56,071 nt of DNA from an uncultured virus (IMG/VR IMGVR_UViG_3300024272_000044) (taxonomy: Duplodnaviria; Heunggongvirae; Uroviricota; Caudoviricetes): the IMG/VR virus record IMGVR_UViG_3300024272_000044; one strand, 5' to 3'. The notes beneath the pieces were generated by a model that saw only the letters and a list, made by a program, of their open reading frames with translations, did not search any database and was not told where the DNA came from. Positions 20,499 through 22,482 of this stretch are shown one piece after another (within the stretch, counting starts at the first letter, position 1; each line of letters begins with the position of its first letter). Made by a program: the position numbers and the translations under genes.

Positions 20499-20645
20499 AA
20501 AAAACTACTTGACAAATAATGGTAAATATGATATAGTTAATATATCAAGTGAAGCGAACAAATAGAAATAAAAAAATAAAAAGTTCAAAAAACTACTTGA
20601 CAAACTGCTTTAAATATGATATACTAAATATATCAAATGAAGCAA
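20499..20645 (+). promoter_or_regulatory. Tandemly duplicated strong promoter driving the tRNA/ncRNA cluster
   Basis: TTGACA(20509)-17-TATAGT and TTGACA(20597)-17-TATACT within an ~88-bp imperfect direct repeat. Confidence 0.85.
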
Positions 20646-20674: not shown

Positions 20675-20818
20675 ATGAATCTTAATCAGAATTCAAATGT
20701 AAACAGTAAAAGAGGAAAGCATACAGCTTATGCAAGATGGACTTCAATTATGAGAAAACTCAGTAATGAAATTGAGGGAGAAAAGCAGAGAGCAAAATCT
20801 GCAATCAATGATAAATAG
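20675..20818 (+). CDS. 47-aa hypothetical protein (not in ORF track)
   Basis: MNLNQNSNVNSKRGKHTAYARWTSIMRKL...; AGGAG RBS. Confidence 0.65.
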   Translation: MNLNQNSNVNSKRGKHTAYARWTSIMRKLSNEIEGEKQRAKSAINDK

Positions 20819-21084: not shown

Positions 21085-21157
21085 TCGTTGTAGAAAATCT
21101 TTTTTAAATAATCCTCCTTTCCTTTTTAGGTGCTGTGTAGGAAGTCCCTACACAATC

Positions 21158-21227
21158 GGGAATGTAGCTCAGTAGGTAGAGCAATGACTTTAAGTCGTAG
21201 ACGTGGGTTCGACTCCCACCGTTCTTG
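21158..21227 (+). tRNA. tRNA-like element with 5-nt anticodon loop
   Basis: Canonical D arm (GCTC...GAGC) and T arm (GTGGG-TTCGACT-CCCAC); anticodon arm ATGAC-TTTAA-GTCGT. Confidence 0.7.
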
Positions 21228-21301
21228 TTTACCAATGTCTAGCCTATAAAACGTTGGTGTAATAAAGTTTAAAAGATTCAAAGTTTAAAAGAAAGGTTAA
21301 A

Positions 21302-21958
21302 ATGGTGAAAATCATGGCAACAAATGAAAAGATGACAATTCATAAAGCATTAGCAGAATTAAAGCTTTTAGATAATAGAATTCTTTCTTCTATTATGAAT
21401 GGTTCATTTTGTGTAGCAAATAAACATTCAAACGATAAAATCAAAGGCGTGTCAGTTGAAGAATATAAAACTGTTATGCAGGGAAACTACGACAAGGCAT
21501 CTGATTTGATTAAGAGAAGAAACGCTATTAAAAAAGCTGTTGTATTGTCAAACGCAGTAACAAAAGTAAAAATTAATGGTATTGAATACACAGTGGCAGA
21601 AGCTATTGAAATGAAAAATCATGGTGTTACTTTTGATGAACACATGCTCCTTGAATTACAGAAACAGTATAACAGAGCTCAGGCTGAAATCCTTAGAGAA
21701 AACGGCTCTGAACTTGAAAAAAGAGCAGAACAGTATGTAATTGGTGCATTTGGTTCTAAAGAGGGCAAGGTGAATACAGAAGAATATGAAAAGGCTAGAA
21801 TGCAGTTCATTAAAGCAAATACATACGAACTTGTAGACCCTATCAAGATTCTGGATAAGATTAACGCATTAGAAGAACATATTAACACATTCAAGGCAGA
21901 AGTAGACGCTGCGCTTTCAGTATCTAATGCAATTACAGAAATTGAAGTTAACTACTAA
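21302..21958 (+). CDS. Coiled-coil protein resembling the DIP1984/DUF6847 family
   Basis: MTIHKALAELKLLDNRI, SNAVTKV...YTVAEAI, LVDP...EVDAALSVSNAITEIEV pattern recalled from that family. Confidence 0.6.
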   Translation: MVKIMATNEKMTIHKALAELKLLDNRILSSIMNGSFCVANKHSNDKIKGVSVEEYKTVMQGNYDKASDLIKRRNAIKKAVVLSNAVTKVKINGIEYTVAEAIEMKNHGVTFDEHMLLELQKQYNRAQAEILRENGSELEKRAEQYVIGAFGSKEGKVNTEEYEKARMQFIKANTYELVDPIKILDKINALEEHINTFKAEVDAALSVSNAITEIEVNY

Positions 21959-21994
21959 ATAGTAGAAAGCTACTTATGTAGTTAATATAAATTG

Positions 21995-22396
21995 GTTATT
22001 CGCTGTTTATTGAAAACTTTAGACTACAACTCATAAGTCTTTTAGGGGTGCTTAGACTTATGTAAAACAATAAAGAAACACCTCTTCTTCTTAAAAGCTG
22101 AGATTTAGAAAAACAACAGAGGAAAAGATTGGAAATCTTTTTATTTGATTGTTTATCAAAATGGGTAAGTGTGTTAAACTTATAGCCAAATATTGATAAA
22201 TATTTACATAGTGGGACTGTAAAGTTTAAAGTTGTAAAACTCAAATAATAAAGTTAAAAATTCAAAGTTTATTTCATGAGTCAAAGTTAAAAGAATAAAT
22301 AGTAAAGTTATAAAGATTTACAAAATCCTTGATATACAGTTTAGTTTAGTTGTACATGACTATAAGCATCTGCAAGGCTGGTAAATAGCGAATAAC
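21995..22396 (+). ncRNA. Candidate ~400-nt structured ncRNA
   Basis: Ends pair (GTTATTCGCTGTTTATT with GGTAAATAGCGAATAAC); internal hairpins, possible pseudoknot, AAAGTT repeat tract; no + strand ORF. Confidence 0.7.
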
Positions 22397-22403
22397 ATAT
22401 TAA

Positions 22404-22482
22404 TGCAAGATAGTGTAAATGGATAACACGAATCTTATAGCAAAGCTAAGATTAAACTAAGGTTCAAATCCTTATCTTGCAA
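22404..22482 (+). tRNA. tRNA-like element with expanded (13-nt) anticodon loop
   Basis: TGCAAGA/TCTTGCA acceptor, GTGT/ACAC D stem, AATCT-TATAGCAAAGCTA-AGATT, TAAGG-TTCAAAT-CCTTA. Confidence 0.7.

Follow-up and report, generated by a model that had tools for sequence, protein, structure and literature searches.

In several known regulatory systems, including TRAP with the trp leader, CsrA-CsrB and the autoregulation of T4 gp32, translation is repressed by an oligomeric or cooperative protein that recognises short single-stranded repeats at regular spacing. CsrA-CsrB combines GGA-loop hairpin repeats with a CsrA-family protein, while in type III toxin-antitoxin systems the antitoxin, a tandem array of pseudoknot repeats, lies upstream of the toxin. 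In the Ro60-Y RNA particle, the RNA acts as a tether between the protein and other enzymes (PMC4201824). GOLLD and ROOL are phage RNAs of tRNA islands, pseudoknotted and with a variable linker able to hold a tRNA, and no protein partner has been identified for ROOL (PMC12286853).

Here, a gene-RNA pair is described from the window, the whole 56,071-nt stretch of viral DNA that was analysed, whose source virus record measures 63.5 kb and is 39% complete. Comparison with homologous loci indicates that this pair belongs to an RNA-protein system that is real, widespread and apparently undescribed, and that contains a catalogued 86-nt orphan motif. A literature search, with most subscription papers outside its coverage, returned no description of the full RNA, the gene-RNA pair or its function.

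Linkage of gene and RNA

The first-pass annotation of this DNA had proposed a gene followed by an ORF-free region, closed by a long-range helix and containing hairpins, a pseudoknot and a repeat tract. All of these elements are present in the window where they had been placed (Table 1). The 17-bp closing helix (21995-22011 with 22380-22396) is fully paired and grows to 18 bp through G22012-U22379, and the region 21990-22400 has a folding stability of z = -3.19. On the + strand of the gap no ATG-started frame exceeds 11 codons; the - strand holds one TTG-started frame of 82 codons (21996-22244).

Table 1. Coordinates of the gene, the RNA and neighbouring features in the window
Feature	Position	Strand	Basis or remark
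Two sigma-70-type promoter matches	20509-20537, 20597-20625	+	11/12 consensus each, both with TG
Leader heptamer units	21263-21292	+	Abut the ribosome-binding site; candidate autoregulatory operator, from sequence
ORF	21302-21958	+	218-aa helical protein; PHROG 1491 / T5.085 family; predicted C2 homodimer
Whole structured RNA	21995-22396	+	402 nt, bounded by helix P1; folding, linkage, covariation
Helix P1 (closing)	21995-22012 with 22379-22396	+	18 bp; covariation
P2 and P3 5' strands	22015-22031	+	Long-range helices; mutual information, partner swap, covariation
H-type pseudoknot	22032-22085	+	S1, U-rich loop, S2, A-rich loop; main part of RAGATH-27
Variable region	22086-22216	+	Holds a tRNA or tRNA-like module in certain homologues; absent from the window copy
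CTG and twelve YAANNNY heptamers	22217-22317	+	Alignment invariance, lag-7 count
3' domain	22323-22380	+	AAAUCC, P4, P5, P6, GGCUG; mutual information, covariation
tRNA gene, anticodon not called	22404-22482	+	7 nt past the RNA

Relatives of the gene are widespread. A word-indexed search found 4295 of them, clustering at 50% identity gave 2372 clusters, and the gene occurs in 739 of 50,697 phage records (T5 among them, as T5.085), in 18 plasmid records and in 62 genome-contig loci, 45 of which are cyanobacterial or group with cyanobacteria. A protein identical to that of the window lies on a 153-kb complete record. The linkage set comprised 230 gene loci, 16 of them cut or broken. In all 214 informative loci the RNA follows the gene, as recognised in 210 by an anchor-and-helix detector and in 4 by eye, and the same detector responded to 24 of 407 control segments. 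Copies of the RNA are found in phages, T5 among them, on plasmids and in the tRNA arrays of cyanobacteria. Because many loci are near-identical, they were reduced to 68 representatives, and to 67 once L144 had been dropped for a wrong boundary call. These include eight distant phages chosen from a spread list (T5, Chester, SE131, phiCDIF1296T, PHB09, VLCpiM5a, Desertfox and AM2), with gaps of 339-636 nt. The core was also recognised in seven other records picked by hand: the pattern finds it in five, and it is visible by eye in the two that carry a GGCAG variant.

The reverse search gave a similar picture. The 3'-domain pattern had at least 118 viral matches, of which 80 were fetched and 73 were RNA-like; the gene lies within 1.5 kb upstream in 72 of the 73, and in none of the seven that were not RNA-like. 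As the pattern came from gene-linked RNAs, it would overlook orphan RNAs of another type. The one RNA-like match without the gene (L241) is a 3' half of the RNA in a 32-kb, 25%-complete contig. In this contig, upstream of position 1400, an ORF that looks endonuclease-like by eye precedes the repeat tract and 3' domain. The 5' half of the RNA was not seen nearby, and an insertion has possibly split the RNA.

The protein belongs to PHROG 1491 (E 6e-57), which is labelled 'tail fiber protein', a label that has been copied onto many phage records. Together with the short distance between gene and RNA, which starts no more than 36 nt past the stop codon in 60 of the 67 representatives, this would suit a virion part, with the RNA either stabilising the 3' UTR or merely carried along. 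However, the predicted fold is all-helical and DIP1984-like, the surroundings of the gene are tRNA and metabolic genes and, in cyanobacteria, tRNA arrays, and the pair stays unbroken at separations as large as 399 nt that include other ORFs, all of which makes a virion role very improbable. In two loci (L236 and L239) the pair is kept although repetitive DNA or long inverted repeats, some 400-450 nt in all, lie between gene and RNA. In another (L062, 2498-3139) the gene is frameshifted, with a stop at 2758, and the start of the RNA looks normal; this may be an assembly error.

The partner protein

The protein has no significant match in Pfam or NCBIfam, and a sequence search of solved structures returned nothing better than E 0.05. 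Its AlphaFold model is a long helical bundle (pLDDT 95.3), for which both fold searches rank 3KDQ first, the structure of DIP1984. With VIA the match has Z 11.0, below the value of about 13 advised for helical proteins, with rmsd 7.5 over 151 aligned residues and the next match at Z 7.7; with Foldseek it has a probability of 0.97 and E 0.042. The match to 3KDQ spans the whole chain. No toxin or nuclease fold stood out in these searches.

Support from sequence for a DIP1984 relationship is weak. The window protein has no NF038048 or PF20935 match above the cut-off, and among 150 relatives weak matches to the two appear in 6 and 5, with best E values of 0.0022 and 0.0075. A profile-profile comparison with the DIP1984 family gives a probability of 3.6% (E 0.012). 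A protein atlas gave 30 unnamed clusters, and the nearest named one, DUF6847 at 0.86 and on 19% of members, is no more than a lead. For this reason the protein, first annotated as DIP1984-like, is best called a probable distant relative and not a member of that family.

An oligomeric protein had also been proposed, and prediction agrees. The predicted homo-oligomer score is 0.46 against 0.06 for the best control, on a scale where 20 of 30 solved dimers attain the mark, but only 1 of 23 monomers does. When four copies were predicted together, at least 65% of contacts agreed between runs with pLDDT of at least 77, in a job unlike the calibration and with a pass that may echo the solved 3KDQ. These runs gave a symmetric dimer interface only, and no ring. 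The conserved residues outside the predicted interface are H14, K21, R26, R72, K105, D202 and S208-N209-A210. The protein is not basic overall, with a net charge of -1 (family median -3).

Related DIP1984 genes have downstream sequences of their own. Canonical DUF6847 is represented by nine genes in 7 of 151 sampled Bacillota genomes and by three plasmid copies (L350-L361). Judged by eye, what follows these short DIP1984 genes is another conserved structured sequence, about 200 nt long, and the plasmid copies that carry it come from Picosynechococcus, Acinetobacter and Enterococcus. An Rfam scan of seven of the nine genomic DUF6847 loci gave no match in the downstream sequence. A further viral DIP1984-like subfamily (L370, L371, L373 and L374) has a downstream RNA with a permuted module of T-arm, hairpin and D-arm.

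Architecture of the RNA

The RNA is built around a set of long-range helices. Hairpin S1 (22032-22040/22054-22062) pairs at 9 of 9 positions, and the pseudoknot suggested between its loop (22044-22050) and 22079-22085, here S2, pairs at 7 of 7 with one G-U and is supported by covariation. Helices P2 and P3 are additional to the first-pass annotation and lock the 5' strand onto the 3' domain. P2 joins 22017-22019 to 22364-22366 in the window and has 5 bp in most homologues, and P3 joins 22025-22031 to the loop 22348-22354. The complementary CCTTG and CAAGG, previously read as a local hairpin, instead form the conserved long-range helix P4 (22327-31/22373-77), accompanied by P5 (22337-39/22370-72) and P6 (22343-46/22358-61). 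The 3'-domain pattern occurs once in the window and in none of 100 shuffles. Two other proposed hairpins (22123-22141 and 22152-22200) are present but fall inside the variable region, which is not conserved. Among homologues the RNA ranges from 238 to 470 nt.

Covariation bears out this architecture. Mutual information across 43 representatives recovers P1, P4, P5, P6, S1, P2 and P3, and the top 21 unbiased pairs all lie in or beside these helices; for cyanobacteria, with an effective number of 4, the measure is uninformative. In an alignment of 35 of the 43, including the window and mostly omitting rows with large inserts, 92.6% of cells are paired against 72.3% in shuffled and 34-41% in slid controls, and 41 of 47 pairs show two-sided changes, with several pair types per helix, for a structure derived from the tested sequences and with kinship uncorrected. 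Since S2 aligns poorly, it was examined by partner swapping: own partners score 16.2 against 10.0 +/- 2.4, and the own partner is the best one in 19 of 43. The own P2 and P3 partners likewise outscore swapped ones in six distant phages, and the same comparison is flat in cyanobacteria because their sequences are near-identical. The cyanobacterial copies inspected (238-302 nt) keep the core, and the H-type pseudoknot was not seen in them. RNAalifold on MAFFT blocks, being unable to represent pseudoknots, recovers no helices other than S1 and P4/P5. Linkage, mutual information, partner-swap and pairing tests thus agree on the conserved, covarying RNA that the first reading had expected downstream of gene homologues, and the RNA is almost certainly functional.

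The pairs of P1 include 160 G-U against 4 A-C, which indicates an RNA of the + strand. This bears on whether the A/T-rich direct repeats beside the gene could act as DNA instead, as origin iterons or operator sites. Such a role is scarcely credible given the compensatory pairing across 400 nt, the excess of G-U over A-C on the + strand and the 7-bp period, which is off the helical repeat of DNA.

Unpaired bases are near-invariant at the P1/P4 junction, where YGRAA and GCUG are each found in 64 of 67 representatives, both motifs also being anchors of the detector. Hammerhead, RNase P and telomerase likenesses were set aside, since conserved bases or topology differ and the 93 neighbouring ORFs scanned include no reverse transcriptase. 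AAAUCC...GGCUG resembles helix P4 of RNase P, and this likeness was rejected because P5 encloses the P2 strand. The failed topology also counts against an RNA core that is itself active, as a ribozyme or a GOLLD/ROOL-like machine with the protein as chaperone or carrier, as does the lack of any ribozyme family match in Rfam. The clustering of invariant unpaired bases at the junction speaks for such a core, as do the tRNA-island setting and the tRNA-holding variable linker common to GOLLD and ROOL, yet ROOL has no identified protein partner (PMC12286853), while the RNA here is almost never without the gene. We regard an active RNA core as quite unlikely.

Heptamer tract and gene leader

The tract had been described as six AAAGTT copies with a period of roughly 7 nt. 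These sites exist (22221, 22228, 22250, 22264, 22283 and 22304, with two more in the leader at 21264 and 21280), and AAAGTT occurs 60 times per 56 kb on the + strand, but the true repeat is a 7-nt unit, YAANNNY, present in twelve copies. The layout is 7+5, with seven units in 22220-22269, a spacer and five units in 22282-22317. The window by itself shows a modest period (lag-7 p = 0.026), and the strength of the repeat statistics comes from homologues: over the 67 representatives, YAA recurs at lag 7 in 334 cases against 39.9 +/- 7.2 in shuffled sequences, and at lag 14 in 264 against 37.2. Each of the 12 unit positions has an invariant A in 35 of 35 aligned RNAs. The count of twelve was taken from this alignment because automatic counting, which gives 10-19 units, over-counts in A/T-rich flanks. 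By eye, cyanobacterial tracts have about twelve contiguous units. The spacing from CTG to P4 could be measured in 39 representatives, and in 30 of these it is 101-108 nt. Unrelated tandem 7-nt repeats also flank the module in three cyanobacterial loci (L114, L120 and L123).

Repeats shared with the gene leader had been proposed as well. Scored with a matrix built from RNA tracts only, this leader ranks first among the 21 window leaders with a ribosome-binding site, and its three-unit score of 17.5 lies inside the shuffled maximum (mean 16.0, max 21.7). Leader units are enriched in the closest group, with a strong unit in 28/41 leaders against 2/55 neighbouring ones and tandem units in 20/41 against 1/55, but it is not significant in cyanobacteria (2/18 against 0/3) or distant phages (1/6 against 0/12).

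A heptamer unit common to RNA and leader, the tight gene-RNA linkage and a pseudoknot, which type III antitoxins also contain, would fit an RNA that is only a regulator. It could be a CsrB-like sponge or type III-like antitoxin for a protein whose real action lies elsewhere, in toxicity, superinfection exclusion or the repression of other mRNAs. However, a sponge has no need of a fixed 7+5 count or of junction bases that are invariant from T5 to cyanobacteria, and the window holds no other heptamer cluster beyond chance. Further, a PADLOC search with 6 proteins gave nothing better than E 0.035, no known endoribonuclease toxin family is matched significantly in Pfam, NCBIfam or PADLOC, and the RNA comes after the gene. 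The first-pass analogies to CsrB and to type III systems are therefore a poor fit to about 12 fixed units in a pseudoknotted core, and a purely regulatory RNA is unlikely.

Genomic setting

The host is presumably a member of the Bacillota, because the closest named relatives come from Clostridia. Three tRNA genes lie between the promoters and the ORF, the RNA comes next and a fourth tRNA follows it, and a transcript of this tRNA-gene-RNA-tRNA order likely starts at the two promoter matches. We infer that gene and RNA are co-transcribed within the tRNA cluster, where 5' processing of the tRNA just past the RNA could set its 3' end. Several other features were seen here. A 47-codon ORF with a good ribosome-binding site (20675-20818) directly follows the promoters, and an odd tRNA gene (21157-21228) has a shortened anticodon loop and is called tRNA-Stop(tta). 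A terminator-like site at 21203-21219 turned out to be the T arm of a tRNA.

tRNA genes recur near and within the RNA. In 45 of 67 representatives there is a tRNA on the same strand no further than 1 kb away, a count without a background control, and in 26 a tRNA starts no more than about 150 nt past the RNA; several others have, by eye, a terminator-like hairpin directly after it. ARAGORN finds a tRNA inside the RNA in 9 of 67. A D- or T-arm pattern is present in 20 of 67, leaving 47 with neither, the window copy included. The T arm precedes the D arm in five RNAs, three by pattern and two by eye.

Neighbouring genes were scanned for 93 of 96 ORFs, also without a background control. Among the 93, four encode two RNA ligases, a Thg1 and a Tpt1. 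The others include four PARG (presumably TIGR02452), one Macro, one NADAR, seven HU and one Tad2-like gene, most ORFs being unmatched and none a reverse transcriptase. The six ADP-ribose-processing genes are found in cyanobacteria. There, a silent tRNA operon of Anabaena, rtcB and a TIGR02452 gene are co-induced by translational stress (PMC10272220). Ro60 and RtcB are absent from the four phage records tested, T5 included. In Calothrix both lie far from the gene, with TROVE copies more than 1.4 Mb away. Two loci carry an Rfam RAGATH-36 match 0.9-1.4 kb upstream of the gene (L065, 1452-1579; L074, 946-1074). In T5 (L081, 5554-6272) the annotated stable RNA rnaX lies about 1.6 kb downstream, in a different sequence region and with no function annotated.

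Proposed mechanism and significance

Because the conserved RNA follows the gene across phages and cyanobacteria, the two probably form an undescribed RNA-protein particle. On balance, we favour a single ribonucleoprotein module that may serve the upkeep of tRNA or translation. By covariation, the + strand RNA has a compact, knotted P1-P6 core from which the twelve heptamers, with their fixed AA, are looped out as a single strand. The protein is predicted to dimerise with its conserved tip left free (H14, K21, R26, D202, S208-N209-A210 and the N- and C-terminal strands). It probably binds the heptamers, and one subunit on each would give about six dimers per RNA and a particle of defined size. 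Surplus protein would bind the one to four units beside its own ribosome-binding site and block translation, matching the amount of protein to that of RNA. Such autoregulation is reasonably likely in this clade. The RNA itself would be released by tRNA processing or termination.

The particle may then work like Ro60-Y RNA, with the RNA tethering the oligomer to tRNA-handling machinery or offering a tRNA-shaped decoy, so that tRNA and translation would be protected or maintained while RNA is being damaged by stress or by the defences of the host. Signs of such upkeep are the location in tRNA clusters, the tRNA mimics that recur among homologues and the repair genes scattered nearby. The role is the weakest step of the proposal and can be put forward only tentatively, by analogy; Ro60-like working without membership of the Ro60 family is weakly suggested. 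More speculative, and in our view doubtful, is a ring or short filament of twelve DIP1984-fold subunits on the twelve-heptamer RNA, whose core carries an optional tRNA mimic. Such a machine would guard tRNA from stress and from the anticodon nucleases of the host, or mend it afterwards. If true, it would be present in T5 and hundreds more phages as well as in the stress tRNA arrays of cyanobacteria, and DIP1984-fold proteins would be a general family of RNA partners.

The module would place an overlooked, conserved RNA-protein system in T5 and its relatives among the 739 phage records and replace the misleading 'tail fiber' label. An orphan Rfam motif would turn out to be one piece of a far larger RNA, and DIP1984, an orphan of structural genomics, would gain a ligand. 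More broadly, the module is relevant to the question of why tRNA clusters with big RNAs occur in large phages.

Comparison with known systems

The RNA had initially been assigned to no named family. This does not hold for 21999-22084, which match Rfam RAGATH-27 (RF03100) with 88 bits against a gathering score of 76.1 and are thus already catalogued, while the rest of the RNA is apparently undescribed. The whole 86-position model is matched, covering 86 of the 402 nt here. It draws one stem (S2) and lacks the P1 partner, P2-P6 and the repeats. Among 20 other loci scanned, RAGATH-27 matched one (L089). RAGATH-27 was not named in the literature search, and RAGATH does not appear in the main text of PMC5737381.

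Short-family DIP1984 / DUF6847 genes (3KDQ, NF038048) are also followed by a conserved structured sequence, but the window protein is about 60 residues longer, and the short-family RNA looks unrelated in sequence. As in Ro60 (Rsr) with Y RNA or YrlA, a protein gene lies beside an RNA closed by a 5'-3' helix, with a tRNA-like module whose T arm comes first in some copies, although this module is optional and absent from the window copy. Unlike Ro60, the partner protein has no TROVE match, and none was found in the 4 phage records. The Y RNA motif GNCGAAN0-1G is present in only 2 of 67, and the twelve-unit tract and pseudoknots are extra.

Like GOLLD and ROOL, this is a pseudoknotted phage RNA near tRNA islands with a variable linker that may contain a tRNA. 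It differs in its length of 238-470 nt, its near-obligate protein gene and its repeat tract, and Rfam scans gave no match to the GOLLD or ROOL models. In contrast to type III toxin-antitoxin systems, there is one RNA downstream of the gene, with repeats that are 7-nt single-stranded units. The unit YAANNNY and a partner without a CsrA match likewise distinguish the pair from CsrA-CsrB. Compared with TRAP, CsrA and gp32 more generally, folds and units differ, and the repeats here are held in a conserved tertiary core and in a fixed number.
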